Shown here: one piece after another, positions 9,162 to 24,699 of the stretch | Layout: each line of letters starts with the position of its first letter | How positions within the stretch are numbered: the stretch's first letter is position 1 | Sequence record: OP557969.1 | Direction: 5' to 3' (one strand) | Origin: Escherichia phage ph0011 | Length of the DNA: 64,000 bases | The notes under the pieces: generated by a model | The model's input: the letters and a program-made list of their open reading frames with translations, nothing else | What the model was told of the DNA's origin: nothing | The model's database searches: none | Translations under genes and position numbers: made by a program

Positions 9162-9162
9162 A

Positions 9163-10534: not shown

Positions 10535-10568
10535 AGCCCACTTCTTATAGTGGGCTTTTTTGTGTTTA
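10535..10568 (+). terminator. rho-independent terminator
   Basis: AGCCCAC/GTGGGCT stem then TTTTTTGTGTTT. Confidence 0.7.
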
Positions 10569-10788: not shown

Positions 10789-10941
10789 ATGAATACTTAT
10801 GAACTGGATTGTTTCACTTTACAAGTAATGTCAGTATGCAGTAAAAAAGATTGGTCATCAAAGGAATTTAAAGCAGTTATTGCGTGTGCAAAACACGGCA
10901 AGACTATCAATGAAACGGCATCAATCATTGATAAACTTTAA
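10789..10941 (+). CDS. micro-protein (about 50 aa), Cys-containing
   Basis: Promoter (TTGCAC..TATAAT), RBS GAGGAT, ATG; below ORF-track cutoff; hand-read. Confidence 0.4.
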   Translation: MNTYELDCFTLQVMSVCSKKDWSSKEFKAVIACAKHGKTINETASIIDKL

Positions 10942-11012
10942 AAAATAGTTTGACAATAGTTTTAAGTACTGCGATAATACATACATCAACTACTGAATAG
11001 GAATAAAAAACA

Positions 11013-11240
11013 ATGGCTATCGTAATCACTCGCGTAACTGGTACTACTGGCACTGCTTCAACTGTTGCTGTAATTACTAATAAGAAAGGTGCAGAATTAC
11101 ATTTTGCAATGGATAAATGGGCCGTTAATGAGTTTGGTCAGTGGGCAAGTGTAGAATACATTGAAACCTATCAAGTGCCATCGATTAGCTTAACTGATTT
11201 AGGTGTAGAACGTATCCTTTGCCTGGATGAATTAAATTAA
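11013..11240 (+). CDS. hypothetical protein (75 aa), Thr/Gly-rich N-terminus
   Basis: Promoter TTGACA..CGATAAT upstream; RBS AATAGG. Confidence 0.55.
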   Translation: MAIVITRVTGTTGTASTVAVITNKKGAELHFAMDKWAVNEFGQWASVEYIETYQVPSISLTDLGVERILCLDELN

Positions 11241-11326
11241 AAAAGTACTTGCAAAGTAAATCAAATAAAGTATAATACATTACATCAAGGGGAGAAAATG
11301 GTTCTCCCCACTAAGAGGAAACTAAT

Positions 11327-11470
11327 ATGAAAACTTGTCAATGTGGTAAAAAATCTATTACGGGTTTGAAACGGGGCGTTGCACTTTGCCAGTATCATTA
11401 TAATGCTCAAGTATGGGGTAAAGAATGGGCCGACCAGGTGGAAGCAGCAAAGAAAGCAAAAAGTAAGTAA
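11327..11470 (+). CDS. micro-protein (about 47 aa), possible zinc-ribbon (CxCG ... CQYH)
   Basis: Complete cassette: promoter, GGGGAGAA/TTCTCCCC hairpin, RBS AAGAGGAAA, ATG; hand-read. Confidence 0.45.
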   Translation: MKTCQCGKKSITGLKRGVALCQYHYNAQVWGKEWADQVEAAKKAKSK

Positions 11471-11482
11471 AAATATTATCAC

Positions 11483-11520
11483 AGTACTATTGACATAGAT
11501 TGATAGTACTGGCATAATAG
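11483..11520 (+). promoter_or_regulatory. class-2 early promoter (AGTACTATTGACA ... AGTACTGGCATAAT)
   Basis: TTGACA, 17-bp spacer, CATAAT, AGTACT flanking both elements; same module at about 14366 and 22582. Confidence 0.55.
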
Positions 11521-11551
11521 ATTTTATCAAGACAACTAAGAGGAAATTAAA

Positions 11552-11896
11552 ATGGCTAACATCAATACTATAGCAGCACAAAATATCAACCTGTCTTCTG
11601 TTGAAGTTGTACACATTGCCGCCCGGCGTTGGTTCCAGGCGTCTTATGGTAATACTTATTTCTCTTTAACGGTAGATGTTGAAATCAATGGCGAATTTAT
11701 TGAAGTAGTAAACGTGCCGTTCCAATATGGCTACGGGGATCATTTTGACACTGTAGCAATGGAAGAATTTAGCAAGGTTATTAATATGGAAGGTAAAGAG
11801 TTTTTACGCGGTTCTTATCTTTCCCGTTTTTGCCGTGATAATAATATTACTGTTTATAGTTCTGTTAGTGATGTTAAACGCAAAAAAGATCTTTAA
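11552..11896 (+). CDS. hypothetical protein, paralog of 18128..18451
   Basis: Shared GNTY, YGYG and C-terminal DVKRKKD; RBS AAGAGGAAA. Confidence 0.7.
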   Translation: MANINTIAAQNINLSSVEVVHIAARRWFQASYGNTYFSLTVDVEINGEFIEVVNVPFQYGYGDHFDTVAMEEFSKVINMEGKEFLRGSYLSRFCRDNNITVYSSVSDVKRKKDL

Positions 11897-11976
11897 TTAG
11901 CTTTACTTTATGCAGATACTTTGATATAGTGTCTGCATAGGGGAAAGAAATTAAATCAACTTAAGAGGATAGTAAA

Positions 11977-12246
11977 ATGAAAAATATCAGTACTTTAATC
12001 GATGCAGGTACACATGTTCGTCGGTCTATGGTTGCAACCAGTTCTACAAAACAAGTAGCGAGCGGTTATCTTGTATTTGTGCACGATGGTAAACTCCTGG
12101 AACGTTCAATCAATTTTGATGTTAAAAACAATTGCCGTTTTATTATCTTTCGCCGTGAACAATATAAGATCGACATTCCAGCGAAGCCCATTAGCGGGGC
12201 GTACAACGTGCAATCATTGTTTGAGCGTCAACCATACACCTATTAA
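11977..12246 (+). CDS. hypothetical protein (89 aa)
   Basis: RBS AAGAGGA upstream. Confidence 0.6.
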   Translation: MKNISTLIDAGTHVRRSMVATSSTKQVASGYLVFVHDGKLLERSINFDVKNNCRFIIFRREQYKIDIPAKPISGAYNVQSLFERQPYTY

Positions 12247-12297
12247 TCAAAACAACGTTAGCGGTCGATTTAGGCCGCTTATACTGGGGATTATATA

Positions 12298-12570
12298 ATG
12301 AATACTAATCAAGTACTGAACGAGATTGAAAGCATCATTAAACCGATGAAGCGTACTGATGCAATGTTAACACCGGAAGAATGCCGCTTATATGAGCGTT
12401 ACAGCGTCGAACAAGTACAGGAAATGGCTATGGCTATCCCTGCCGTTCAACAGCCTGAGAACGCAGTACAGGACGTTACAGGGGATTATAACATCAATCC
12501 AGTACTAGGGAAGATTACACCAATTACCGAAGAACAAAAAGACTACTTAAGCCAGTACTTAAAAGGTTAA
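12298..12570 (+). CDS. hypothetical protein (90 aa)
   Basis: RBS GGGGA upstream; acidic. Confidence 0.6.
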   Translation: MNTNQVLNEIESIIKPMKRTDAMLTPEECRLYERYSVEQVQEMAMAIPAVQQPENAVQDVTGDYNINPVLGKITPITEEQKDYLSQYLKG

Positions 12571-12575
12571 TTAAT

Positions 12576-12785
12576 ATGCTTACTGTACAGGATAAGATCG
12601 ACATCTTAAAGGTTAATATGTATGTGATTGATGCCGTACCTGGTAAAGTATTTGCATACGATGACACCACTGTAAGCAATTTCTACTATAGCCAGGAAGT
12701 GGGGGATCTTTCTGTACAGTCGGTTATTGAAAACGTAGTTAATGCAGCGTATGAGCATTTACTTTCAAATAGTACTTGCAATTAG
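12576..12785 (+). CDS. hypothetical protein (69 aa)
   Basis: ATG 6 nt after upstream stop. Confidence 0.5.
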   Translation: MLTVQDKIDILKVNMYVIDAVPGKVFAYDDTTVSNFYYSQEVGDLSVQSVIENVVNAAYEHLLSNSTCN

Positions 12786-12833
12786 TTTTTAAACGCGTAT
12801 AATGTTTTACATGAAGGGGAGAAATAGTACTCC
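12771..12833 (+). promoter_or_regulatory. early promoter plus 5' leader hairpin cassette
   Basis: AGTACTTGCAA, TATAAT, GGGGAGAAA-tag-TACTCCC hairpin. Confidence 0.55.
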
Positions 12834-12853
12834 CACTAATTAAGGAATAGTAA

Positions 12854-13000
12854 ATGAAAGCATCAAAAAAGAGTACTAACAAGAAAGCACGTTCAACTTT
12901 AGATGGGGTATTCCCTTTGCGTTTTGTGGATGAAGTAGTTTCCTACCCGCTGGGCCTTACTCCTGAGATGGTAGAAAGTTTGCGTAAATCTAAAAAATAG
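12854..13000 (+). CDS. micro-protein (about 48 aa), basic
   Basis: Cassette (promoter, hairpin, RBS TAAGGA) then ATG; hand-read. Confidence 0.4.
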   Translation: MKASKKSTNKKARSTLDGVFPLRFVDEVVSYPLGLTPEMVESLRKSKK

Positions 13001-13081
13001 TACTTGCAATTAGTTTTTAGTACTGTATAATGTTTTACATGAAGGGGAGAAATGATTCTCCCCAAGAACAGGAGAAACAAA

Positions 13082-13234
13082 ATGAAACAATACAACGCTC
13101 GGTTTGATGTTACTATCGGCAACGGCAAAGGTCAATTCTCTTTCAGTACTCGTAAGAGTTATACAGAAAACTTCTTGCGTAATTGTGCACTGACCGCCGC
13201 ACAAATTAAACATTATTTTCAGGCTAAAAAATGA
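13082..13234 (+). CDS. micro-protein (50 aa)
   Basis: Start at MKQYN after hairpin and RBS AGGAGA. Confidence 0.55.
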   Translation: MKQYNARFDVTIGNGKGQFSFSTRKSYTENFLRNCALTAAQIKHYFQAKK

Positions 13235-13320
13235 AATCATTAGCTTATTATAGTTCGGCCCTGGTCGGTGCATTGATCGCGGCATTGTTAGTAGCTTATC
13301 TATTCTTTATGGTGATTTAA
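13231..13320 (+). CDS. tiny hydrophobic peptide (about 29 aa), predicted single transmembrane helix
   Basis: ATGA overlap with upstream stop; MKSLAYYSSALVGALIAALLVAYLFFMVI; hand-read. Confidence 0.35.
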   Translation: MKSLAYYSSALVGALIAALLVAYLFFMVI

Positions 13321-13458
13321 ATGAATCCTAACGGTATAATTTACAGTACTCCTAAAACGAAAGCAGATAAAGCCAAAGCACGTAAAGCGAAAGTAAAGGA
13401 GTACATCAAGCAAGGCATGACACGAAAGGCGGCAGTACTGAAAGCTAAAAATAAATGA
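13321..13458 (+). CDS. lysine-rich micro-protein (about 45 aa)
   Basis: ATG directly after previous stop; highly basic; hand-read. Confidence 0.35.
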   Translation: MNPNGIIYSTPKTKADKAKARKAKVKEYIKQGMTRKAAVLKAKNK

Positions 13459-13459
13459 A

Positions 13460-13565
13460 AAAAGTGGTTGACTTCGGTCAGCCATTTTGCTATTATATAT
13501 TCATTGAGAGATAGCTCACTAGCCCACGGGGTGCGGGAGTGTATCTATTATATAAGCATTGAGTA
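13460..13565 (+). repeat. GGGTGCG-core intergenic element with its own TTGACT..TATTATATA promoter
   Basis: Related copies at about 17190, 20460 and 23200. Confidence 0.5.
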
Positions 13566-13606
13566 CTGAAAACTATTTTAAAAGTATTTGTAGAAAGTAC
13601 TTGCAA

Positions 13607-13660
13607 ACTATCTCAATAGGCGTATAATGTTTTACATCAAGGGGGAAACGGTTTCCCCTA
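13607..13660 (+). promoter_or_regulatory. early promoter plus 5' leader hairpin cassette
   Basis: AGTACTTGCAA, TATAAT, GGGGGAAAC-g-GTTTCCCC hairpin. Confidence 0.6.
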
Positions 13661-13678
13661 GTAATAAGGAATAAAATC

Positions 13679-14020
13679 ATGACTATTGCAATTGTACAAT
13701 CTAACTTTGAAAACGAAATCATCGCCCAAGCACTGCGTTTAAATGATGGTCGGGCCGAAATTAATTACGGTTTCAATTCAGGCGGTTGTGAAAAATATCA
13801 GTACTTTATAACTGCTGATGGCGGTGTCCTGGGTATTAATACAGTTATTGTAAACATTCAGAAAATTAATTTCAATGATCCAGACGATAGCCAGTTTTAC
13901 ATTATAGGCGTAGACGTGAACTATGAGGATGACTCACTAACTGATGATTACACTGGCGAGAAGTTAGAAAGTGCATACGGTGAAGATGATTATCAGTCAG
14001 TACCGGAAGATTTTGAATAA
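13679..14020 (+). CDS. hypothetical acidic protein (113 aa)
   Basis: RBS TAAGGA after hairpin; Asp/Glu-rich C-terminus. Confidence 0.65.
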   Translation: MTIAIVQSNFENEIIAQALRLNDGRAEINYGFNSGGCEKYQYFITADGGVLGINTVIVNIQKINFNDPDDSQFYIIGVDVNYEDDSLTDDYTGEKLESAYGEDDYQSVPEDFE

Positions 14021-14143
14021 TATTAAAAAATAGTTTGACAATAGATTATAGTACTGTATAATATTTTACATGAAGGGCAACGGGAAGTTTTTAAAACTTC
14101 CCTATAGGGAGAATAGTTCTCCCACTAACAGAGAGAAAACAAA

Positions 14144-14356
14144 ATGGCTAATATCTGCACTGTACTGAAAAATGCAAAACAAGTTTTATTTTCTGATCAC
14201 GATCATTTAAACAAGGATATTACTGGCGTTCGGAATATCAAAGATGTAAAAAGTGTTATGGGCATCTATTGCAATATGAAACGTGTTGGAACGTTCGGTA
14301 ATAAATTTCTATACCAAGCGGGGGATTACAATTTTACACTGACTATCATTAACTAA
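14144..14356 (+). CDS. hypothetical protein (70 aa)
   Basis: Promoter, double hairpin, RBS AGAGAGA. Confidence 0.6.
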   Translation: MANICTVLKNAKQVLFSDHDHLNKDITGVRNIKDVKSVMGIYCNMKRVGTFGNKFLYQAGDYNFTLTIIN

Positions 14357-14438
14357 AAATATTATCACAGTACTATTGACATAGATTGATAGTACTGGCA
14401 TAATAGATTTTATCAATTACACTACTAAGGAATTAAAA

Positions 14439-14618
14439 ATGGCTATCATCGCAAAAACTGAAATCATCGGCCTGGATTCTATCATCATGACGTTTGAAGA
14501 TCAAAAAGGTATGTATGTAGTTTCCTATGGTGATTATGTTCGGGAGTATGAAACGGTAGACGAAGCCTTTGAAAGTTACATTCGCCAGGTGAATAAAGCA
14601 TACGACGATTACCGCTAA
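14439..14618 (+). CDS. micro-protein (about 59 aa)
   Basis: Class-2 promoter, RBS TAAGGA, ATG; hand-read. Confidence 0.45.
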   Translation: MAIIAKTEIIGLDSIIMTFEDQKGMYVVSYGDYVREYETVDEAFESYIRQVNKAYDDYR

Positions 14619-14731
14619 AATATATTACCAGTACTATTAAAGATATTGACAACGTTTGATAGTACTGGCATAATAAGTTTTATAAACAGTAGTCAAATAG
14701 TAGTTAACTTAACAAAAGAGAGAGAAACAAA

Positions 14732-14875
14732 ATGATCGCACTGGATTCATTCATCGATGCAGTTCTGGCAAAAACTGGCGAGGATCTGACCGCAGAACAA
14801 TACGCGATGATCGAGCAATGCCAGCAAGACGGTAAATCGGTGAAAGATACTGTTAAGATTATCCGCAAGATGTAA
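14732..14875 (+). CDS. micro-protein (about 47 aa)
   Basis: Class-2 promoter, RBS AGAGAGAGA, ATG; hairpin follows; hand-read. Confidence 0.4.
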   Translation: MIALDSFIDAVLAKTGEDLTAEQYAMIEQCQQDGKSVKDTVKIIRKM

Positions 14876-14981
14876 GATTATAAGCCCATTAGTTAACGCT
14901 GGTGGGCTTTAATCATTTACCCTATACAATGCCAGTACTAAACCGTTTATCTCGTTAGAATGCATTACAGGACGTTTGACA

Positions 14982-15179
14982 ATGATTAGCATGAAATCAG
15001 TACAAAAACAAATAGAAACATTATCAAAAATTAAACGTAAACAGTACTCATTAGAATATAATATCAATGGTAACTATCATCTAATGAAAGAGAATAATTT
15101 TATCGTCATTGATGAATCATTGCAAATTATTAGTATAGTACTGAAAGCATTAATTAATGATAGAAAAAGGTTAAAATAA
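14982..15179 (+). CDS. hypothetical protein (about 65 aa)
   Basis: Track ORF begins at a TTG; first ATG chosen; no clear RBS. Confidence 0.35.
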   Translation: MISMKSVQKQIETLSKIKRKQYSLEYNINGNYHLMKENNFIVIDESLQIISIVLKALINDRKRLK

Positions 15180-15436
15180 TGGCAGTAGGATTCGCGAAAG
15201 ATGGAGCCGAGCAAGATGAGATTAACGCAGTTATTCAAGCCGCCGTTAACCACGCTAGAAAGCAAATTAACGCACAAATAGAATCACTGATACATTGCCT
15301 CGACTGCGGCGATAAAATCCCTGAGAATCGCCGACAGGCTGTTAAGGGTTGTAAGTACTGCATAACTTGCCAGGAGGATCATGATAGTACTTTTAAACGT
15401 CCCCCGCGTAATTGTTGGCATAGATCTATGAGATAA
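15179..15436 (+). CDS. TraR/DksA-family C4 zinc-finger protein
   Basis: C-x2-C-GDKIPENRR ... C-x2-C spacing typical of TraR-like proteins; start overlaps upstream stop. Confidence 0.7.
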   Translation: MAVGFAKDGAEQDEINAVIQAAVNHARKQINAQIESLIHCLDCGDKIPENRRQAVKGCKYCITCQEDHDSTFKRPPRNCWHRSMR

Positions 15437-15500
15437 AAAGTAATTGACAGTACTGAAAGATAGTGTATAATGTTTTATATCTTAACTGAGGATAGAAATC

Positions 15501-15857
15501 ATGGGAATACAACATATCACGCGGACCACTGACAATGGCGAGATCACTGGTTATCAAGTACAGGGCAAAGTAGCACAATTGCAGTACTGGTTTGTTAAAC
15601 GTGGAATCATTGCACCGGATCTTGATTATGACCGTGTAGCGTTTATTGATTCTCTTTATGTTGATCCTGATAGTCGGGGCAATGGTGAAGGTAACGAATT
15701 AATGAATGCCTTTATTGATGCCGCCGATGATTCAGATTGTATCATCTTAGAATGCGATACGGGAGAAGATAACGCCTTTAATCTTAAAGAATGGTACGAA
15801 GGTTTCGGATTCGAGGTATTGATAGATAGTGAATATCCTATCATGATTTTATCATAG
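15501..15857 (+). CDS. probable small GNAT-family acetyltransferase
   Basis: FIDSLYVDPDSRGNGEGNELMNAF resembles GNAT motif A; 118 aa. Confidence 0.4.
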   Translation: MGIQHITRTTDNGEITGYQVQGKVAQLQYWFVKRGIIAPDLDYDRVAFIDSLYVDPDSRGNGEGNELMNAFIDAADDSDCIILECDTGEDNAFNLKEWYEGFGFEVLIDSEYPIMILS

Positions 15858-15936
15858 TACTTGCATTTAGTTTTCAGTACTGTTATAGTACTTGCATCAA
15901 GGGGAAACATCTTCCCCTACTAAGAGGAAATAAAAA

Positions 15937-16125
15937 ATGGAAAACTTATCAAGTATTTTAGTACAAGATGATTTCGGTAATCCTGGAAGTGCTATCATTG
16001 TTCGGGGCAATAAAGCAACGTTTGTTATTGCTGGTGGACCCGTACAGCGTAGCATTAAAAATAATGCTGTTACCATTAATAATGTACGCTATCGCTTAGA
16101 TAAAGAATTAATTCATAAACTGTAA
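15937..16125 (+). CDS. hypothetical protein (62 aa)
   Basis: Promoter, GGGGAAAC..TTCCCC hairpin, RBS AAGAGGAAA. Confidence 0.6.
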   Translation: MENLSSILVQDDFGNPGSAIIVRGNKATFVIAGGPVQRSIKNNAVTINNVRYRLDKELIHKL

Positions 16126-16152
16126 TATTAATTTAATAGAGGATAACAATAA

Positions 16153-16476
16153 ATGTACATTCATACTACTGTCACAAAGGAAGTCCGTTGCCAGTTCGAA
16201 AGTATTCCGGGCGTATGTTTCATCACTGGTACGTTTTCCCCTGGTGATCGTGATAATCCAGTACTGTTACAGTTACGCCATCCATTATGGGATAAAGCAT
16301 TTGATCTGCCGTTGAATGAATTCGCAACCACTGCTGATAAGTACATTAAAAATATTCGCGAGAATGATTGCCTATTCATTAATGCTTTTAGTGATGCCGC
16401 GTTAAGTGAGATCCATGCTGTATTGGTTGCAATCATGGAATCAATGGAGAAAACTATATTCAAACAAGGTGAATAA
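16153..16476 (+). CDS. hypothetical protein (107 aa)
   Basis: RBS AGAGGA upstream. Confidence 0.6.
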   Translation: MYIHTTVTKEVRCQFESIPGVCFITGTFSPGDRDNPVLLQLRHPLWDKAFDLPLNEFATTADKYIKNIRENDCLFINAFSDAALSEIHAVLVAIMESMEKTIFKQGE

Positions 16477-16481
16477 AAACT

Positions 16482-16542
16482 ATTGACAATGCAATCCAGT
16501 ACTGTATAATAGTTTACATGAAGGGGAGAAATGATTCTCCCC
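16482..16542 (+). promoter_or_regulatory. early promoter plus 5' leader hairpin cassette
   Basis: TTGACA, AGTACTGTATAAT, GGGGAGAA-atga-TTCTCCCC perfect palindrome. Confidence 0.65.
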
Positions 16543-16559
16543 ACTAAGAGGAAAGAAAA

Positions 16560-16772
16560 ATGCAAGGTCAACTAATCGTTCGTAAATGGTCTGATACTAA
16601 CGAAAAACCGTGGGATGTACAATACATCGCCCCAAATGGTGAATCCAGATATCAACCAGGTGTAACGCATAGTACTGAGCAATTCGCCGCCGCTCATCGC
16701 GAACGTCTGTTACAATCAATGCAGCACGGTTCCGGTGAAAAATTCATTCAGGATCATTGGCTGAAAGATTAA
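16560..16772 (+). CDS. hypothetical protein (70 aa)
   Basis: ATG after hairpin and RBS AAGAGGAAA. Confidence 0.65.
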   Translation: MQGQLIVRKWSDTNEKPWDVQYIAPNGESRYQPGVTHSTEQFAAAHRERLLQSMQHGSGEKFIQDHWLKD

Positions 16773-16858
16773 AAAGTACTTGCACAGTACTGAATAAAGT
16801 GTATAATGTTTTATATCGGAAGGGGAATAGTTCCCCTCCTAACAAAGAGGAAAGTATA

Positions 16859-17032
16859 ATGGTCCAGGTAGAATTAACAGTACTGAAAGATCTGTTTTAT
16901 CGGATTGGTACTACTGGCGAATATCCGAAGGGTGATAATGCAAAACTTTACGTATCACTCGACTTATGGCAACGCGAACAATTAGCAACGGCCTGGCGTA
17001 AAGGCAAAGCAGATAGCGAGGTGAAAGCATGA
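16859..17032 (+). CDS. micro-protein (57 aa)
   Basis: Start at MVQVEL after hairpin and RBS AAGAGGAAA. Confidence 0.55.
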   Translation: MVQVELTVLKDLFYRIGTTGEYPKGDNAKLYVSLDLWQREQLATAWRKGKADSEVKA

Positions 17033-17178
17033 AAGAATTCTTATTTGAAGTAGTGTTTCAAGGTGTCGGTAATAACCAACTGATTCGATCAAGTGGTTAT
17101 AATGTTAACCAGGCATGGAATAACATTAAACAAATGTACCCTAACGCTATCACATATCGCAACCCGAAAGAAGTTTAA
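17029..17178 (+). CDS. micro-protein (about 49 aa)
   Basis: ATGA overlap with upstream stop; hand-read. Confidence 0.35.
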   Translation: MKEFLFEVVFQGVGNNQLIRSSGYNVNQAWNNIKQMYPNAITYRNPKEV

Positions 17179-17189
17179 AAATATTTGAA

Positions 17190-17290
17190 AAAGGGATTGA
17201 CTCCGGTCAGTCCCTTTGCTATTATATACGCATAGAAACAAATCAGCCCACAGGGTGCATAAATGTATCTATTGTTTGCTGGTGGCTAGT
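17190..17290 (+). repeat. GGGTGCG-core intergenic element with own promoter
   Basis: GGGATTGACTCCGGTCAGTCCCTTTGCTATTATATA then AGCCCACAGGGTGCAT; near-identical 5' part at 20460 and 23200. Confidence 0.5.
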
Positions 17291-17353
17291 ACTGAAAACT
17301 ATTTTTAAAAAAGTACTTGCATTGTACTTAGAATCAAGTATAATGTTTTACAT

Positions 17354-17424
17354 CAGGACGGGGAACGAAATAAGTAACCCCGTTAAGTAGTCCAGGAGTA
17401 AGACATACGAAAAACTCCCCTGAT
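17354..17424 (+). other. structured about 75-nt leader element (copy 2)
   Basis: Near-identical to 6731-6803; between tandem promoters upstream of 17494. Confidence 0.45.
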
Positions 17425-17493
17425 AAAATAGTTTGACAATAGAAAGTAAACGAGTATAATACTTACATCAACCACTGATAAGGAAACATTAAA

Positions 17494-17769
17494 ATGCGGA
17501 CTTTACTTACAGCTAACGAAATCGAGCAAGTACTGACTACTAATCTGGAACAATGGAAACGTGAAGCAGATATCCAGGCGGTTCAATGCCTTAACGATAA
17601 GTTAACGCCAGATGACTTAAGCACGATTGTTGATCCACAATTTTATGAAGATATTCACGACACGTCTTTAAGCGTCGAGGATGTACTTGATAAGCACTAC
17701 ATTGATACTGATTTACATGTTTACGGTCGTAAAAACTTTATCACTATTCACGACATTTACAATACTTAA
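17494..17769 (+). CDS. hypothetical acidic protein (91 aa)
   Basis: RBS TAAGGAAA upstream. Confidence 0.65.
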   Translation: MRTLLTANEIEQVLTTNLEQWKREADIQAVQCLNDKLTPDDLSTIVDPQFYEDIHDTSLSVEDVLDKHYIDTDLHVYGRKNFITIHDIYNT

Positions 17770-17772
17770 GTA

Positions 17773-17836
17773 TTGACAAAGTATCTTAGTACTGTATAAT
17801 AGTTTACATCAAGTGAGGGGAAACGGTTCCCCTCCT
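17773..17836 (+). promoter_or_regulatory. early promoter plus 5' leader hairpin cassette (duplicate A)
   Basis: TTGACA, AGTACTGTATAAT, GAGGGGAA..TTCCCCTC hairpin; about 85-bp near-identical copy at 18044-18127. Confidence 0.65.
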
Positions 17837-17857
17837 AACAAAGAGAGAGAAATTAAA

Positions 17858-18040
17858 ATGGCTAAGTGCACTATCTGTAAGAAAGAAATCGTATTAGTTC
17901 CAAGTGCCCGTGAACGTGCCGCTCGGTTCGGTGGCAAAGCGTCAGACTATACAAAAATGTTTACTGCCCATGCAGCTTGTCAAGTAGCAAAACGTTCACA
18001 AGAAAGCGTAGAATTAATGCGTAAACTTTCCAAAAAATAA
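17858..18040 (+). CDS. micro-protein (60 aa), Cys/Lys-rich
   Basis: Start at MAKCTICKKE after hairpin and RBS AGAGAGAGA; start set from track frame. Confidence 0.6.
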   Translation: MAKCTICKKEIVLVPSARERAARFGGKASDYTKMFTAHAACQVAKRSQESVELMRKLSKK

Positions 18041-18043
18041 GTA

Positions 18044-18104
18044 TTGACAAAGTATCTTAGTACTGTATAATAGTTTACATCAAGCGAGGGGAATGGTTCC
18101 CCTC
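18044..18104 (+). promoter_or_regulatory. early promoter plus 5' leader hairpin cassette (duplicate B)
   Basis: Near-identical to 17773-17836. Confidence 0.65.
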
Positions 18105-18127
18105 CTAACAAAGAGAGAGAAATAAAA

Positions 18128-18451
18128 ATGGCTATGATCCTTACCCAGAAAGTAGAACTGAAAATTGTAACCTCCTTTGACATTAAAGTTAATCGGTGGA
18201 CTGATAGCCACGGCAATACTTACCACTCCTGCTACGTGTCCGCATTGATTGGTGATCGCTGGGAAGACCTGGGACACGAAACCTTTACATACGGTTACGG
18301 CACACAAGGCGAGTACACGGGTTTAGAAATCATTAAGGAAACTGTAATAGGTTTCAACCCGAAAGAGAAAGTACTACACAGAATTGAGAAAGAGATCAAC
18401 AAAGAAATTACAGTTCGCTACTACGATGTAAAACGTAAGAAAGACATGTAA
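18128..18451 (+). CDS. hypothetical protein, paralog of 11552..11896
   Basis: Shared GNTY, YGYG, DVKRKKD. Confidence 0.7.
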   Translation: MAMILTQKVELKIVTSFDIKVNRWTDSHGNTYHSCYVSALIGDRWEDLGHETFTYGYGTQGEYTGLEIIKETVIGFNPKEKVLHRIEKEINKEITVRYYDVKRKKDM

Positions 18452-18546
18452 TAGAATCCATTTAAAGTACTATTTGACATTGCCCAGATAGTACTTTATA
18501 ATAGACTCTAACTTGTAGTACTAACTTAACTAATAGGATGTATACC

Positions 18547-18942
18547 ATGATTACTAAATTCTACGCTACCCGTGAAGCTGCCCGTATTGTTGCACGCGAG
18601 GAAGGAGCAGCATTTAAAGACATGGGCAAAGATGCACCGAAAGGTCAACGCTGGGCCGTACAGTTCAAAGAAATCTCTGATATTGTGAATTCACCTGAGC
18701 CAGTACTGACAGCAGCAGAACTAAAACGAGCGGATATGCTGGCGGCAATACTTGACGCACAAGATGAGTTTATCGCTGATTCTGATATCAAAGTACAGGT
18801 AAACCACACCGCATGGACTCACGCGGATCACCTGGCAAACCTTAAGCGTCCAAGTGAACTGATTCGCAACCAGAAAGAGATCCGACATGATCGTAAGGGT
18901 AATCGTGTAACAGTATACAGTAAACGCCGCCAGGTTATCTAA
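18547..18942 (+). CDS. hypothetical protein, paralog of 5861..6127
   Basis: Start at MITKFYATRE (RBS AGGA 8 nt upstream). Confidence 0.6.
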   Translation: MITKFYATREAARIVAREEGAAFKDMGKDAPKGQRWAVQFKEISDIVNSPEPVLTAAELKRADMLAAILDAQDEFIADSDIKVQVNHTAWTHADHLANLKRPSELIRNQKEIRHDRKGNRVTVYSKRRQVI

Positions 18943-18964
18943 TAACTTGCAGTACTAACAACAC

Positions 18965-18990
18965 GGCGGGATCAGTTCCCGCCTTTTTTA
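18965..18990 (+). terminator. rho-independent terminator
   Basis: GGCGGGA/TCCCGCC stem then TTTTTTA; same stem type as leader hairpins but with a U-run. Confidence 0.7.
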
Positions 18991-19003
18991 TAGGACAAAC
19001 AAA

Positions 19004-19258
19004 ATGATTAAGGTTCAACTATATAAAGATAACATCTTACGGGTACACTATAAAGCACCGAAGAGAATCATCACAAAGGCCGTACAGCTTGCTAATGAGT
19101 TTATTAATGGTAACCTATTACCGAGGAAGTTAAGCAACGGGAAACTGCGTGTAATCGATGTGGACACTAACAACAGGATAGTAATCGAGAACACAGGAAA
19201 GATAAACCTTTATGAGCATCAACAATACAATAAGAAAATAAAACTAATATCACGTTGA
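19004..19258 (+). CDS. hypothetical basic protein (84 aa)
   Basis: RBS AGGACAAACAAA. Confidence 0.55.
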   Translation: MIKVQLYKDNILRVHYKAPKRIITKAVQLANEFINGNLLPRKLSNGKLRVIDVDTNNRIVIENTGKINLYEHQQYNKKIKLISR

Positions 19259-19311
19259 CAGTACTCAATTGTTTTAGTATTATGTACACATACCAACACG
19301 GGAGAAACAAA

Positions 19312-19530
19312 ATGAAATTATCTAAAATCGAAAAGAAAACTATTGATGAAGCAGTTAAGCACGGTTATACCTTTCGTAATGATTCACATTTTACCAATTT
19401 TCAACAAGGGTATCGTACTATTAAAAAACTAATTGACAAAGGTTTATTAGTTGAAGTCAATAACGGTAACGGTATCGAGTATCAACCAACACAGGACGCA
19501 TTTTATTTTAAGAAATATAATATTATCTAA
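19312..19530 (+). CDS. hypothetical protein (72 aa)
   Basis: Start at MKLSKIEKK after RBS GGGAGAAACAAA. Confidence 0.55.
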   Translation: MKLSKIEKKTIDEAVKHGYTFRNDSHFTNFQQGYRTIKKLIDKGLLVEVNNGNGIEYQPTQDAFYFKKYNII

Positions 19531-19588
19531 TTGACAGTACTCAAATGTTTTAGTACTATATGTACATACCAACACGGGGGGAAACAAA

Positions 19589-19831
19589 ATGATTACTTTA
19601 GAAAAACGTATCAAAGAAACTACATCGCTGGTGGAACTGTTAACAGTACTCAAATGTAAAACAACACCATTCAGCACGCCGGACTTTATTAATATGGTTG
19701 ATGTTAATGGTCGCTATCGTATCACGGTCGAACAAGGAGCGGCGAAAGTATTCAGTACTAAAAACACGAAGGAAGTGATCCACGCCGTTAATGTTAAAAA
19801 AGTAGTTGCCATTGATAGTAAAGTACTGTAA
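19589..19831 (+). CDS. hypothetical protein (80 aa)
   Basis: RBS GGGGGGAAACAAA; upstream module repeats that of 19312. Confidence 0.55.
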   Translation: MITLEKRIKETTSLVELLTVLKCKTTPFSTPDFINMVDVNGRYRITVEQGAAKVFSTKNTKEVIHAVNVKKVVAIDSKVL

Positions 19832-19862
19832 TATAGTTTCATTAACTCAAGGAGAACATGCA

Positions 19863-20447
19863 ATGCGTAATTATACTAAATTCATCCGTACACTGTCAGA
19901 AATGGAAACCAACAAAGAGATCCTTTCAGCTTGTCGGTTAGCTGGCCTGGAGATCATCGGTGCTGGTTCTTCCCGTATAGTTTTCGCTTTAAATGATCGG
20001 TTAGTGATTAAGGTCGCGAATTGTGATGCGGGTGTAGAACAAAATGAAACTGAATGTAAGGTATGGAATTTTTTAGACTATGACCGCCCTCAATTGAAAC
20101 AGTACTTTGCAAAGGTGCATATGCATTTATGCGATCCTGATAATATGTTTATCGTTATGGATCGGTTGAGTACTGCAAGCAAAGGCAGTGTGAAGCACGT
20201 AAACGCGTGCAATGAATTAAAGTACAATATTAAACGTAATGCAATCGAACGCCAGCACCGCTTTGCTGATGCACTACAACACGTTGATGATACATTATCA
20301 ACACTAACGATAAGAGATATCAGAAAACAGAATATCGGCCAGGATCGTAATGGACTTATTAAAGTACTTGATTACGGTTTAACCAGCAATATCTGGAATC
20401 AGTACTATAAAAAGCGTGATGTGGCAGCAAGTAAGGTAACACGATAA
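19863..20447 (+). CDS. minimal protein-kinase-like protein (about 195 aa)
   Basis: Gly-rich loop IIGAGSSRIVF, Lys motif LVIKVA, catalytic-loop-like IRDIRKQN, DFG-like LDYG in canonical order and spacing; RBS AAGGAG. Confidence 0.6.
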   Translation: MRNYTKFIRTLSEMETNKEILSACRLAGLEIIGAGSSRIVFALNDRLVIKVANCDAGVEQNETECKVWNFLDYDRPQLKQYFAKVHMHLCDPDNMFIVMDRLSTASKGSVKHVNACNELKYNIKRNAIERQHRFADALQHVDDTLSTLTIRDIRKQNIGQDRNGLIKVLDYGLTSNIWNQYYKKRDVAASKVTR

Positions 20448-20459
20448 AAAAGATTAAAA

Positions 20460-20560
20460 AAGGGATTGACTCCGGTCAGTCCCTTTGCTATTATATATCC
20501 ATTGAGAGATAACTCACTGACCCATAGGGTGCGGAAGTGTATCTATTATATAAGTATTCA
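20460..20560 (+). repeat. GGGTGCG-core intergenic element with own promoter
   Basis: GGGATTGACTCCGGTCAGTCCCTTTGCTATTATATA ... CCCATAGGGTGCGGAAGTGTATCTAT. Confidence 0.5.
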
Positions 20561-20667
20561 GTACTGAAAACTATTTTTAAAAAAGTACTTGCATTGTACT
20601 TAGAATCAAGTATAATGTTTTATATCGAGAGGGGGAATGGTTCTCCCTGGCAATAAGGAATAAAATC

Positions 20668-20889
20668 ATGACTACAATGACTTGCATTTACGCTTCTAAT
20701 CTTCTGAATGATGCGGCCTTTAATGTTGATTCAGAATATCAATGTTATCGGGATGAAAATAAAAAAGTTTTTGTAGTTGATAATAATGGTTTCCATATTG
20801 AATTACAATCCGGCTTCACTGGTGTTGATGGTAAATCAGTATGGGGCGTACAGGATGATAAAGGCACATATCATTTTAAACGTAATTAA
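20668..20889 (+). CDS. hypothetical protein (73 aa)
   Basis: Promoter, GGGGGAATGGTTCTCCC hairpin, RBS TAAGGA. Confidence 0.65.
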   Translation: MTTMTCIYASNLLNDAAFNVDSEYQCYRDENKKVFVVDNNGFHIELQSGFTGVDGKSVWGVQDDKGTYHFKRN

Positions 20890-20892
20890 GTA

Positions 20893-20951
20893 TTGACAAA
20901 GTATATCAGTACTGTATAATAGTTTACATCAAGGGGAGAATAGTTCTCCCC
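20893..20951 (+). promoter_or_regulatory. early promoter plus 5' leader hairpin cassette (duplicate C)
   Basis: TTGACA, AGTACTGTATAAT, GGGGAGAA-tag-TTCTCCCC; near-identical copy at 21385-21442. Confidence 0.65.
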
Positions 20952-20972
20952 GATACTAAAAGGAATAAAATC

Positions 20973-21377
20973 ATGACTACTACTAATCAAGCTCGGTCCA
21001 TCGCCAACGATAAAAATCATGCTGCAATGGTCGCTGGTTACATTGAAGCTATGCAATTCAGTACTGTACACAATGAGAACGGCGATTACCTGGAAGATTA
21101 TGAATTATCAGAGCAAGCCCATCAAGCGGCGGTGATTGCATGTTCTCGCTTCATTGAGAAACACGGTAATGATCTGGAAGTAGTTCGCGGTATGTTTATT
21201 GATTACGGTTATGAGCAAGCTGGTCATGATCTCTTTCTTACTCGCGAAGGTCACGGCACTGGTTTTTGGGATCGTGGTTTAGGTCACTATGGCGATGTAT
21301 TCACGAAGTACTGCGAAGAAATCAACGTTTGCGATCCCTATGTAGGCGATGATAATCTAATCTATATGGGCGAATAA
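20973..21377 (+). CDS. hypothetical protein (134 aa)
   Basis: RBS AAAGGA after hairpin. Confidence 0.65.
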   Translation: MTTTNQARSIANDKNHAAMVAGYIEAMQFSTVHNENGDYLEDYELSEQAHQAAVIACSRFIEKHGNDLEVVRGMFIDYGYEQAGHDLFLTREGHGTGFWDRGLGHYGDVFTKYCEEINVCDPYVGDDNLIYMGE

Positions 21378-21384
21378 AAGTATT

Positions 21385-21442
21385 TGACAAAGTATATCAG
21401 TACTGTATAATAGTTTACATCAAGGGGAGAATAGTTCTCCCC
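21385..21442 (+). promoter_or_regulatory. early promoter plus 5' leader hairpin cassette (duplicate D)
   Basis: Near-identical to 20893-20951. Confidence 0.65.
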
Positions 21443-21461
21443 ACTAAAAGGAAACAAAATT

Positions 21462-21734
21462 ATGTCTAGCTACTCCGCAACTATGATCATCAAAGATATG
21501 AATAACAATCCTACCGCCGCTGGTGGATCGTTCGGTAACATTAACCTAGATGGTCGGTTATCCATGCAATCAGCCATCGATGCAGCGAAAGAAGTTTTTA
21601 AGAATGAATGTACTGTTAGTAAGCTGGATTATATGGGTTTCGCTATCGAGAAAACTACTCGTTTTGTGAACTACAAAAATCCACTGATGATTGATACTAA
21701 CCTGAAAGCTAACGAAGTGGGGTACTTATTATGA
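21462..21734 (+). CDS. hypothetical protein (90 aa)
   Basis: RBS AAAGGAAAC after hairpin. Confidence 0.65.
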   Translation: MSSYSATMIIKDMNNNPTAAGGSFGNINLDGRLSMQSAIDAAKEVFKNECTVSKLDYMGFAIEKTTRFVNYKNPLMIDTNLKANEVGYLL

Positions 21735-21922
21735 CAGTAGAAGAAGTTAAAAAAGTACTGGCAGTACTACGATATCATAATCATTGCAAGGTGAAGAATG
21801 ATCCTGATTATCTTGATTCATCCCTGGAGGAAGACACCTTGAACGCTATAAGCCATATGCAGACATTAGCAAAGCGTATGACTGAAAAGAATATGCCGGA
21901 CTATATCGGAAATAAAATTTAA
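21731..21922 (+). CDS. hypothetical protein (63 aa)
   Basis: ATGA overlap with upstream gene. Confidence 0.5.
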   Translation: MTVEEVKKVLAVLRYHNHCKVKNDPDYLDSSLEEDTLNAISHMQTLAKRMTEKNMPDYIGNKI

Positions 21923-22009
21923 AAAGTACTTGCATTGTAGTTAGATTAACGTATAATGTTTTATATCGAGAGGGGGAAATGGTTTCCCCTCAAGTCCAGG
22001 AGATACACC

Positions 22010-22273
22010 ATGAACACTATCGAAATCACTATCAATGCACACGTATACGACAACGTAGTACTGCAAACTACTATGACCGCCAATGATACCAGTACTTTGC
22101 GGAATACTGTTATTAGTGCCGTATGTGCCGCTATCGGTGATGTCGCCCTGGAAAATGCAAAACACGTAAACGATGGTTTCACTATGTGCAAACGTGATAA
22201 CGCAAAACATATCATCGTGGAAGGTTACGGCGGTGTAGAATTTAATGTTTATATGAAAAAAGTACTTGCATAA
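22010..22273 (+). CDS. hypothetical protein (87 aa)
   Basis: Start at MNTIEIT after GGGGGAAA..TTTCCCC hairpin and RBS CAGGAG. Confidence 0.6.
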   Translation: MNTIEITINAHVYDNVVLQTTMTANDTSTLRNTVISAVCAAIGDVALENAKHVNDGFTMCKRDNAKHIIVEGYGGVEFNVYMKKVLA

Positions 22274-22340
22274 TAACTAAAACAAAGTATAATGTTTTGC
22301 ATAGGGGGAGATATCCTCCCCCACTAAAAGGAGTAATAAA

Positions 22341-22565
22341 ATGGCTAACTTTGATGAACTGATGCGGGAAGTAGCTAACCTGGCAGAAGAGAAGAAATCA
22401 TTCGATTCTATCTATAACACCGCTCACCGTGATTCAGTACTGGCATGTAACCAGGATCAAAAAGATGAACTAATCGCCACCTATCATGAAGCATGGAAGT
22501 ACTACCGACAATGGGAGAAAGAAGAAAGTGAGTCTACCATTGACGGCCTCAATAATCTAATCTAA
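22341..22565 (+). CDS. hypothetical acidic protein (74 aa)
   Basis: Promoter, GGGGGAG..CTCCCCC hairpin, RBS AAAGGAG. Confidence 0.65.
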   Translation: MANFDELMREVANLAEEKKSFDSIYNTAHRDSVLACNQDQKDELIATYHEAWKYYRQWEKEESESTIDGLNNLI

Positions 22566-22581
22566 AAGTTTTATTTCAGTA

Positions 22582-22615
22582 CTATTGACATAGCTTGATA
22601 GTACTGATGTAATAA
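22582..22615 (+). promoter_or_regulatory. class-2 early promoter
   Basis: AGTACTATTGACA ... AGTACTGATGTAAT. Confidence 0.5.
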
Positions 22616-22641
22616 CTTTACTAACTACAAGGGGAAACATA

Positions 22642-22899
22642 ATGGATCAGTTCACACAATATCGGGTAAATCCACAAGCTATGGCCTACGTAGAAGACCA
22701 TAAAACGTTACCAGTACTGCAACCAGTTAAAGGCCATATCTATCGTGCAATGTCGTGGTGTACGGCCCAGGATGGCTATAAAACCGTAGCCGTGGGTATG
22801 TATTGCGGTGATGGTGAATGGTTTGATCCAAATAATCCGGTAGCCATTGACAGTACTGAAAAAATGAAATGGGCCGACTACATCGAAGATATTTCATAA
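22642..22899 (+). CDS. hypothetical protein (85 aa)
   Basis: RBS AAGGGGAAA. Confidence 0.6.
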   Translation: MDQFTQYRVNPQAMAYVEDHKTLPVLQPVKGHIYRAMSWCTAQDGYKTVAVGMYCGDGEWFDPNNPVAIDSTEKMKWADYIEDIS

Positions 22900-22989
22900 A
22901 AACTATTTGACAGTACTAACCAGTAATGTATAATGTTTTACATAGAGCGGGGGAATAGTTCTCCCGCCAATAGTTTGGAGTAAAACATT

Positions 22990-23190
22990 ATGTCTATCGC
23001 TATCGCCATGGTTGAAGTACTGAAAGAAGCTAAAGCCAACCAGATCGACGTAAAGATCCAGGAACTACAAAACGGCTTAATCGGCTGTACTTGTACCGCT
23101 GGTGGAGCGGCAGACTATCGAGAACACGAATCACTCGAATCACTGGTTCGGTATCTTACCATGATCGTTGATGATTGGAGAATCATCTAA
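22990..23190 (+). CDS. hypothetical protein (66 aa)
   Basis: Promoter, GCGGGGGAA..TTCTCCCGC hairpin, RBS GGAG. Confidence 0.6.
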   Translation: MSIAIAMVEVLKEAKANQIDVKIQELQNGLIGCTCTAGGAADYREHESLESLVRYLTMIVDDWRII

Positions 23191-23199
23191 CAAAAAAGA

Positions 23200-23330
23200 A
23201 TAAAAAAAGGGATTGACTCCGGTCAGTCCCTTTGCTATTATATACGCATAGACAAAAACTAGCCCACAGGGTGCATAGGTGTATCCAAAATATATAGTTA
23301 ATAACGGTGAGTAACTATCTGCTGGTGGAA
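23200..23330 (+). repeat. GGGTGCG-core intergenic element with own promoter (longest copy)
   Basis: Same 5' part as 17190 copy with an insertion in the central region. Confidence 0.5.
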
Positions 23331-23435
23331 CTAAAACTATTAATAAAAAAGTATTGACAAAGTATATCAGTACTGCAATAATGTATCTCATAGGGCGGCA
23401 ATGGTGCGACGGCCCACAAAGTTAGGAGATTCAAA

Positions 23436-23768
23436 ATGACTACTTCAATCGCTATCGTTAAAGCTTTCATCCGTACTAATGTTTCCTCTGTATTCATCGA
23501 CGGCCTCGACCGTAACGTAGAATACTCAATCATTATCGCACAAACGGCAAACGGTTCTCGGTACATCCTGAATGATAGTGAAGCAAATCACTACTACTTC
23601 ACTAAAGCCACTGGCTTTAAACGCATCGATGCTGATGTAGTATACGCTAAGATGAATAAGCTGGTAGATAAGATTAACGCTAAAGGTACTATAGATTTAC
23701 AGTACTGGACCGAAACCGATCCAGAATATGGATCTCACCGCTACCTGAATCCAGGTATTAAAATGTAA
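23436..23768 (+). CDS. hypothetical protein (110 aa)
   Basis: Promoter, GGGCGG..CGGCCC hairpin, RBS TAGGAG. Confidence 0.65.
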   Translation: MTTSIAIVKAFIRTNVSSVFIDGLDRNVEYSIIIAQTANGSRYILNDSEANHYYFTKATGFKRIDADVVYAKMNKLVDKINAKGTIDLQYWTETDPEYGSHRYLNPGIKM

Positions 23769-23832
23769 AAAGTACTTGCATAGTACTTAGATTCATGTAT
23801 AATGTTTTACATAGAGAGGGGGAAATGGTTCT
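23766..23832 (+). promoter_or_regulatory. early promoter plus 5' leader hairpin cassette
   Basis: AGTACTTGCAT, TATAAT, GAGGGGGAAA-tgg-TTCTCCCTC hairpin. Confidence 0.6.
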
Positions 23833-23857
23833 CCCTCCTAAATTAAGGAGTTTTATC

Positions 23858-24259
23858 ATGACCTTCTCAATCACTTCCTTCGCTGACGTTTTAGTACTGG
23901 CTCGGACTTTTGGTAAAGATGCACTGGAGTACGCTGTAAGTAATGGCACTATCCAACCGGAACAGTGCCGCATCATTGGAAACTGCAAACGTTGGGCGGT
24001 TTCCAATACTATTGCACTGGAAAACTTCCACGATGGCAACAATGAATATTCTGTTGATGTAGTATTCGAAGCCGTTGATCTCGGCGGTATCTATAATACT
24101 AACCTGAATGATGTGCGTATCGTTCGCACTGGGTTCGGTGCTTATGATGTATCTATTCGTGAAGCTATGAACACCGGATACATTAGCAAGGACTTACTTG
24201 CTCACATCATGCAGCTGTGTACGGAACGTAACGAAGCACGCACTATCTTAGGGTTGTAA
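23858..24259 (+). CDS. hypothetical protein (133 aa)
   Basis: Start at MTFSITSF after hairpin and RBS AAGGAG. Confidence 0.65.
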   Translation: MTFSITSFADVLVLARTFGKDALEYAVSNGTIQPEQCRIIGNCKRWAVSNTIALENFHDGNNEYSVDVVFEAVDLGGIYNTNLNDVRIVRTGFGAYDVSIREAMNTGYISKDLLAHIMQLCTERNEARTILGL

Positions 24260-24327
24260 GCGTTACACATCATCAAACATCATAGGCCGCTCTCTAGCGG
24301 CCTTAACTATATCAGGAGTACATACAC

Positions 24328-24537
24328 ATGATCTATACAGTATACAACGTTCTAGGCACTATTGCAGGCGTACATGATAACGTCGATGGTGCTATGCGTA
24401 CAGTACTGCAACAGGTTCCACTAAAGCCTAAGACCATTAAGCAGATGACAGCACGACTAACCAGGGCGACGGCTGGCGTGGAAGTATGGCAGGACTATGG
24501 GGATACACAGATAATCGTAAGCGTAACGAAGGATTAA
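24328..24537 (+). CDS. hypothetical protein (69 aa)
   Basis: RBS CAGGAG; last gene before the FamB array. Confidence 0.6.
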   Translation: MIYTVYNVLGTIAGVHDNVDGAMRTVLQQVPLKPKTIKQMTARLTRATAGVEVWQDYGDTQIIVSVTKD

Positions 24538-24699
24538 TGCGTAAAAGGATTTAGTACTGATTCAGAAAAAAGTCAAGGCGTTTTTAAAATTATGCGTTAA
24601 AAAAATGCATAGGTAATCCCTTGACTTTTTTGAAATAAAAGGGATTGGACTATGGCAAAATGCGTAGGGGGCTAAAGGGCGGGTAACCTTAGCGACTTC

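Follow-up and report, generated by a model that had tools for sequence, protein, structure and literature searches.

What does a gene of only 585 nucleotides, with motifs resembling those of a protein kinase, do for the phage that carries it? We asked this of an open reading frame (ORF) in Escherichia phage ph0011 (sequence record OP557969.1), of which a stretch of 64,000 nucleotides, here called the window, was analysed. An earlier examination of the letters alone (the sequence-only reading) had taken the gene for a minimal, early-region protein kinase that might serve host takeover, as T7 gp0.7 does. Judged by its sequence, the gene is a member of a large, phage-restricted family of minimal protein-kinase-like kinases. 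Its 585 nt include the stop codon, and the ORF thus translates to 194 amino acids rather than the 195 first given; the gene is under purifying selection, with a ratio of nonsynonymous to synonymous substitution rates (dN/dS) of 0.16 against the orthologue of phage 121Q. The reading that we favour, with a probability of roughly 0.5, is that the product is an early-expressed, active phosphotransferase of minimal protein-kinase-like fold that acts on host or phage proteins.

Sequence comparisons place the protein near the protein kinases. Its top Pfam match is Pkinase (PF00069; E 0.004), at 17 bits against a cutoff of 31.7 and hence sub-threshold, and 6 of 50 family members match the same model singly (E<=0.01; best 5.7e-6). 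PADLOC returned only weak matches of a generic-kinase kind, to PD-T4-6 (E 7e-4), and NCBIfam returned none. A phmmer search of PDB sequences found protein kinases only, with MKK4 in register over alphaE, the catalytic loop and the DFG motif. When a profile of 50 family sequences was used instead, 589 PDB sequences matched at E<=1; the 60 listed were all protein kinases, and the best among them was again MKK4 (PDB 3ALN, 2.2e-5).

Structure prediction gave a similar answer. With an alignment of 14 sequences, AlphaFold2 reached a mean predicted local distance difference test (pLDDT) score of only 56, which was unusable; with 107 sequences, pLDDT rose to 93.2 and the predicted template modelling score (pTM) to 0.90. 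The resulting model begins with two N-terminal helices, followed by three strands, on which the Gly-loop and K50 are found, then by a long alphaC (helix 55-73) and beta4/5, and continues into a C-lobe of alphaD, alphaE, the catalytic loop, two short strands, the DYG loop and one short helix (175-182). It thus has the features of a bilobal protein-kinase-like fold: a five-stranded N-lobe with alphaC, a hinge, alphaD/alphaE, and catalytic and metal-binding loops. Foldseek against the PDB yielded 752 matches at E<=10, of which the best 50, those listed, belong to the protein-kinase-like fold class or are SAICAR synthases. Hundreds of independent kinase structures match, and the only non-kinase matches listed are SAICAR synthase. 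In the predicted model, the fold class is clear, and its likeness to any solved structure is only moderate. The proposal of a kinase-like protein is borne out by profiles that match kinases only and by a model that fits kinase folds; the Foldseek comparison, which could have exposed a non-kinase fold, gave one of the kinase class.

The four motif strings named by the sequence-only reading are all present, in order and with kinase-like spacing, at residues 31-41 (IIGAGSSRIVF), 47-52 (LVIKVA), 150-157 (IRDIRKQN) and 169-172 (LDYG). The intervals are 17 residues from G33 to K50, 14 from K50 to E64, 5 from D152 to N157 and 13 from N157 to D170, the last two being equal to those of PKA. An ordered regular expression for the four motifs was matched by one of the 71 stop-to-stop ORFs of at least 120 amino acids in the window, namely the kinase gene, and by one in 200,000 shuffles of the protein. 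In an alignment of 107 sequences, whose members are mostly 21-28% identical to the query outside a close group, the invariant residues are L29, G35, S36, R38, K50, G57, Q60, E64, D152, G159, D170 and G172. Besides residues of the Gly-loop, these comprise the beta3 Lys and alphaC Glu, the two Asp for catalysis and metal binding, and the family-specific signatures GSSR and QNxxE, in which Q60 and E64 are invariant and N61 nearly so in the family alignments. K50, E64, D152 and D170 align to the counterpart residues of solved kinases, LDYG aligns to the DFG of MKK4 and other kinases, and Y171 is found in at least 90% of the sequences.

The catalytic loop calls for a more guarded description. IRDIRKQN had been compared with HRDxKxxN, and the comparison holds for D152, the one residue of the HRD-type motif that is invariant. 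The His is absent; R151 is replaced by I, Q, A, G or N in close homologues, K155 varies too, and N157 is nearly invariant only among the close Rak2-like relatives; in the wider family, His or Ser often stands in its place. The likeness is thus only partly meaningful, because R151 and K155 are variable and the Asn is often His or Ser. As to catalysis by this protein, the invariant catalytic set at the sequence level argues for an active phosphotransferase.

Only 24 residues follow D170 of the DYG loop, and the protein has no activation segment, APE motif or alphaF-alphaI, so that the canonical activation segment and subdomains IX-XI of eukaryotic-type protein kinases (ePKs) are missing. Two observations bear on whether this is a truncation: the same end point is found across the family, and a Tyr about 12 residues past DYG is nearly invariant in the 107 sequences. 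Some relatives are single proteins of up to ~1,100 amino acids with 2-4 complete minimal kinase domains, in which the fused domains recur every 200-240 residues and the next domain starts ~15-40 residues after DYG. Other relatives form tandem arrays of paralogous genes. Fused and arrayed forms were seen among P0021, P0023, P0027 and P0037, loci L022, L036, L038 and L045, and L061 and L071. From the shared end point, the near-invariant Tyr and the multi-domain relatives, we conclude that the end after DYG is a natural domain boundary and not the mark of a truncated gene. The protein had been called unusually small; it is indeed minimal, ending where it does, but small size has precedents in ArkI chains of 173-216 residues, in a 224-residue T7K-like protein of the same phage group, and in OspG, which has been described as a minimal kinase and is 196 residues long.

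The family to which the protein belongs is PHROG 4301, listed as of "unknown function" (E 1.8e-41, residues 3-188). All 50 of 50 diverse relatives match PHROG 4301 only, and none has a Pfam family of its own. A 5-hydroxymethyldeoxyuridine (5-hmdU) DNA kinase was considered and rejected, as the relatives all fall in PHROG 4301 only and the gene lies outside any DNA-modification cluster. Direct homologue searches gave 13 relatives, and a profile of these, run against 1.84 billion cluster representatives, found 2,068 clusters (at 50% identity) at E<=1e-3 and 244 at E<=1e-10, mostly of 180-260 amino acids. Among sequenced phages, BLAST-detectable homologues occur in Rak2-like jumbo phages only, whose hosts are Escherichia, Salmonella, Klebsiella, Yersinia, Erwinia, Pectobacterium and Xanthomonas. 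In IMG/VR, relatives are encoded in 204 stretches, from which 80 loci on contigs of 4-360 kb were kept. Scans of 185,579 species genomes with narrow patterns found no member of the Rak2-like subgroup and, for an aquatic subgroup, a single 12-kb contig of a metagenome-assembled genome. By sequence, the family is restricted to phages, its absence from cells being as wide as those narrow patterns reach. One orthologue, in CMSTMSU (MH494197.1, 116446-117023), appears as two tblastn pieces at 79% identity without an annotated feature, and may reflect a frameshift, a pseudogene or a sequencing error.

A kinase prediction for this gene is already known from GenBank, UniProt and one paper. Orthologues are labelled "putative protein kinase" (SE_PL, fENko-Kae01), "serine/threonine-protein kinase" (Turkey5) and "serine/threonine-protein kinase PRP4" (fEgEco12), most records have "hypothetical", and a PBECO4 fragment is named "Protein kinase domain-containing protein" in UniProt. 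The paper on phage Sharanji describes the orthologue WNN14351.1 as "another protein kinase, which function is unknown" (PMC11895373). In the literature on the gene we found no experimental, transcriptomic or proteomic study.

The position of the gene bears on when it might be expressed. The surrounding 2.5 kb are 94-98.5% identical to E. coli jumbo phages of 350-385 kb in the genus Asteriusvirus, including JNE01, fEgEco12, G17, Sharanji and 121Q. Phage fEgEco12 has a direct terminal repeat (DTR) of 20,993 bp, and its termini were confirmed by restriction mapping (PMC13070987). Its position 1 corresponds to window position 3358 and its DTR end to about 24,690; the repeat maps over 3358-24693 and thus encloses the gene, which is ~16.5 kb away from the physical end on the left. 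Orthologues are covered by annotated DTR features in vB_Ec-M-J and in the far more distant Klebsiella phage fENko-Kae01, and two copies of the gene are present in records holding both repeats. Between 15 and 25 kb, the + strand carries nine perfect 12/12 sigma-70 promoters (TTGACA-16/17-TATAAT), each leading to a leader hairpin, a ribosome binding site (RBS) and a small ORF. In PA5oct, a related jumbo phage reliant on host RNA polymerase, early transcription is high for most genes of the DTR (PMC7318152). From the DTR site, the promoters and the PA5oct analogy, we infer that the kinase gene is probably expressed early, in agreement with the placement in an early region that the sequence-only reading had made.

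Within its own neighbourhood, the kinase gene has no perfect promoter; a 10/12 match precedes an upstream ORF of 80 amino acids, with which the gene is probably co-transcribed (Table). The pair of genes is also found in fEgEco12, Sharanji, vB_Ec-M-J and 121Q. The promoter lies within a 68-nt repeat, of which a second copy is at 19245. The hairpin that follows the kinase gene has a predicted RNA folding energy of -19.8 kcal/mol (z-score -4.0).

Table. Coordinates in the window of the kinase gene, its motifs and nearby features
Feature	Position	Strand	Remarks
Coding sequence, minimal kinase-like protein (PHROG 4301 family)	19863..20447	+	Stop codon within end coordinate
RBS AAGGAG	19849..19854	+	8 nt 5' of ATG, read from sequence
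Glycine-rich loop codons, IIGAGSSRIVF, residues 31-41	19953..19985	+	G35, S36, R38 invariant; signature GxGSSRxV
K50 codon, beta3 (VAIK-type) Lys	20010..20012	+	Invariant in three family alignments
Q60-N61-x-x-E64 codons	20040..20054	+	QNxxE family signature; E64 is the putative alphaC Glu
Catalytic-loop codons IRDIRKQN, residues 150-157	20310..20333	+	Aligned to HRDIKPSN of MKK4
LDYG codons, residues 169-172, DFG-equivalent metal-binding loop	20367..20378	+	D170, G172 invariant
80-aa ORF upstream of kinase gene	19589..19831	+	Ends 31 nt before kinase start; no family match
Nearest upstream sigma-70-like promoter, TTGACA-17-TACTAT	19531..19559	+	10/12, consensus match only
12-bp hairpin, terminator-like, directly 3' of stop	20459..20486	+	Part of 93-nt repeat
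Stretch collinear with the 20,993-bp DTR of fEgEco12	3358..24693		Megablast of fEgEco12 1-22000 against window

Several other features of the region were observed. The 93-nt repeat occurs three times (17177-17269, 20446-20538 and 23193-23285); its terminator-like 12-bp hairpin (AAAGGGATTGACTCCGGTCAGTCCCTTT) holds in its stem a -35-like TTGACT, with TATTAT 17 nt later, and a conserved GGGTGC segment lies 3' of this hairpin/promoter-like part. The repeat may be a combined terminator and promoter element. Between 14000 and 25000, the window has a modular early-gene cassette, consisting of promoter, GGGGAGAATAGTTCTCCCC-type leader hairpin, RBS and small ORF, and two much-repeated promoter classes, one with perfect TTGACA-16-TATAAT and the other with TTGCAT as its -35. 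Where the DTR-equivalent region stops (~24.7 kb), an array of ~30 paralogous genes of ~70 amino acids begins, head to tail with overlapping stops and starts (24757-32644, plus 43913-44104). All-against-all blastp (E<=1e-4) revealed three more paralogue families: nine ~62-aa genes in tandem within 1126-3082, nine ~150-aa genes within 40190-48691, and eight ~115-aa genes scattered within 30698-47827. Positions 1-3357, to the left of the equivalent of the physical left end of fEgEco12, are contiguous with the rest of the window, so that the source record was probably assembled in permuted form or with the DTR collapsed.

How might such a protein act? In the reading that we favour, host RNA polymerase would transcribe the gene early, from an Asteriusvirus-type DTR, as the second gene of a short operon with a hairpin at its end. 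The product would be an ATP-dependent phosphotransferase composed of an N-terminal two-helix extension, a complete N-lobe, alphaD, alphaE, a catalytic loop, a DYG loop and a short C-terminal helix. Soon after DNA entry, it would phosphorylate host (or phage) proteins on Ser/Thr, with the result that the host is taken over or a defence disarmed, and would thus parallel T7 gp0.7 (T7K) in function while being distinct from it in evolution. Such a role has precedents in T7K and JSS1_004, phage kinases made early that phosphorylate proteins of the host as well as defence systems (PMC13645617), and a takeover or anti-defence function plausibly fits the presumably early, host-transcribed setting.

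Not all of the evidence favours this account, and five points weigh against it. No Pfam or NCBIfam model passes its threshold for the protein, and its fold matches include APH(2'') and the tRNA kinase ArkI. The family consensus of the catalytic loop, xGDL, is nearer to the atypical Rio, Bud32 and APH-type kinases, many of which have non-protein substrates, than to HRD kinases; small molecules and RNA are among the substrates of such atypical kinases. Ser, Thr and Tyr make up 17.8% of the early-region ORFs and are not depleted, so that the signature of a T7K-like hyper-promiscuous kinase is missing, and liquid chromatography-tandem mass spectrometry (LC-MS/MS) of fENko-Kae01 virions is noted for two nearby genes and not for the orthologue. 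A substrate other than protein is conceivable too, because the peptide-binding half of the C-lobe is absent, the xGDL loop resembles that of atypical kinases, and relatives have neighbours of RNA-repair or CCA type.

If the substrate were not a protein, the same fold could still house an active kinase, directed at RNA or tRNA, as is ArkI at the 2'-OH of U47, or at a small molecule, as are the aminoglycoside, choline and MTR kinases. We regard this as possible, though somewhat unlikely. ArkI is itself ePK-like without subdomains VIII and X and is encoded in an operon with a tRNA nucleotidyltransferase; the peptide-binding portion of the C-lobe is absent here, and the Rak2-like subgroup, including this protein, is basic, with an isoelectric point (pI) of 9.2-9.8. 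In one subclade (10 of 47 dereplicated viral loci), the kinase gene has a Pnk(AAA_33)+CPDase gene on its downstream side at a distance of 1-4 genes; 4 of these loci also have an Rnl1-type RNA ligase, which completes an RNA-repair cassette, and another member of the family is near CCA-adding-enzyme-like, HD and NUDIX genes. The Pnk/CPDase gene is a fusion of P-loop polynucleotide kinase and 2H-phosphoesterase (tRNA_lig_CPD), seen on the viral and metagenome contigs of L004/L052, L024, L029, L044, L067, L068, L079 and L088. However, this neighbourhood is confined to a subclade whose kinases are 33-69% identical to one another, and may be inherited synteny; these kinases are acidic (pI 4.9-5.6), unlike ArkI with its positively charged tRNA-binding patch; and neither a homologue of Pnk/CPDase or Rnl1 nor a tRNA gene was found in the window. 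Moreover, HGQ and DFE replace the catalytic Asp and DFG in ArkI, whereas the PHROG 4301 family keeps both Asp, and the sequence-profile matches listed are protein kinases, not APH or ArkI. A doubtful alternative of another kind is a nucleotide-binding pseudokinase, or a kinase inactive alone, which would work by binding a host factor, or whose truncated C-lobe would have to be completed by a partner from the host. It would suit the absence of alphaF, the anchor of the classical catalytic core, and the variable catalytic-loop Asn of the wider family, and it has parallels in the minimal kinases OspG, which is activated by a partner (E2~ubiquitin), and SteC, which needs an activating phosphorylation. 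Yet no member of the very divergent family alignment departs from the Lys, the Glu or either Asp, a constancy unusual among pseudokinases, and the polypeptides of 2-4 domains keep the motifs in each domain.

That an unrelated small protein resembles a kinase by chance is scarcely credible: the curated-model matches are all sub-threshold and the fold scores moderate, as such an explanation would have it, but the motif combination is as rare among shuffles as described above, the family-invariant positions are exactly the catalytic positions of kinases, and the structures matched by the hundreds are kinases, with SAICAR synthase alone as a listed exception. That the protein is a diverged member of the T7K family, with the same hyper-promiscuous anti-defence activity, is also very improbable. 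Both are early phage genes whose products have no HRD His and stop not far past the metal-binding Asp, an architecture that thus recurs in phage kinases, and T7K-type models in BFVD are among the better structural matches (E 3e-6 to 5e-5, TM about 0.5-0.56), slightly better than any solved kinase. Against a shared family, hhalign gave a probability of 0.2% for our family profile versus T7K and of 2% versus an 8-sequence T7K alignment; GSSR, QNxxE and DYG here contrast with GNGHFS and DPV in T7K, whose relatives have an invariant TDP; tblastn of T7K found no match in the window; the early proteins show no Ser/Thr/Tyr depletion; and a true T7K homologue exists elsewhere in the same phage group, as Sharanji gp144 (BLASTP 4e-8). 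The comparison with gp0.7 drawn by the sequence-only reading therefore fails as a statement of kinship beyond the superfamily and holds as a functional analogy only. Sharanji gp144, a second minimal kinase of 224 amino acids located outside the window (OR545507.1 66182-66856; L092 28183-28857, minus strand), has an ITDPLS motif and ends ~18 residues past the metal-binding Asp; that it might be a paralogue of the kinase studied here was rejected by profile comparison. The Sharanji paper names WNN14432.1 as a T7 kinase homologue (PMC11895373).

What would the family mean for phage biology? In a bolder and rather unlikely proposal, PHROG 4301 would represent an autonomous kinase module, specific to phages and ~200 residues long, that does without alphaF-alphaI, the core found in all classical kinases, and has a new substrate recognition, a non-protein substrate or the need for a host partner. 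If true, counter-defence or takeover enzymes of phages would gain a new class beside T7K, with RNA-repair intermediates as one candidate for a non-protein substrate in the subclade that has Pnk/CPDase and Rnl1 neighbours. The module is found singly, in arrays of tandem genes and as 2-4 fused domains. The domain also offers a natural experiment on how little of the kinase C-lobe function requires. The family would be a second one of phage kinases, unrelated in sequence to T7K and, with its 2,068 clusters, far more widespread in metagenomes, and the presence of both kinase types in Asteriusvirus-type jumbo phages provides a natural system for asking why there are two. Phage kinases such as T7K and JSS1_004 have lately been shown to be broad anti-defence weapons. 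The family is a good and timely experimental target rather than a surprise.

Set beside known kinases, the protein shares with the ePKs of PF00069 the Gly-loop, beta3 Lys, alphaC Glu, catalytic Asp(-x4-Asn) and DFG-type Asp in register, together with the architecture of the N-lobe, alphaD and alphaE; it differs in its sub-threshold score and in lacking the HRD His, a conserved Arg, the activation segment, APE and alphaF-alphaI. OspG/NleH, SteC and HopBF1 are similar in having cores of ~200 residues (the size of OspG and HopBF1), a depleted C-lobe and a use as parasite tools against the host, whereas they are secreted into eukaryotic cells, and SteC keeps alphaF and alphaG; none was among the best structural or sequence matches listed. 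The archaeal tRNA U47 2'-kinase ArkI (AQ578/COG2112) differs in its HGQ and DFE motifs, its retained subdomains IX and XI, and its YKR RNA-binding motif; our protein has neither HGQ nor DFE nor a C-terminal YKR on a long alpha7 helix, and no sequence match to ArkI was seen. With Rio, Bud32 and APH-type kinases, it has in common the protein-kinase-like fold, a reduced C-lobe without an activation loop and, in most PHROG 4301 members, a GD-type catalytic loop. Those kinases retain more C-terminal helices and have a conserved His before Gly-Asp, which the PHROG 4301 family is without, and no profile match to them was among the matches listed.

The closest functional parallels may be T7K and its relative JSS1_004, each an early gene read by host RNA polymerase, as this one probably is, and encoding, like it, a small protein-kinase-like domain with an N-terminal helical extension. 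T7K further shares the D-x4-N catalytic loop without the HRD His and the end soon after the metal-binding Asp. It differs in possessing a C-terminal DNA-binding/shut-off domain, absent from this protein, and in having DPV where this protein has DYG, with neither GSSR nor QNxxE. Even so, the role proposed for T7K is the model for the function suggested here.
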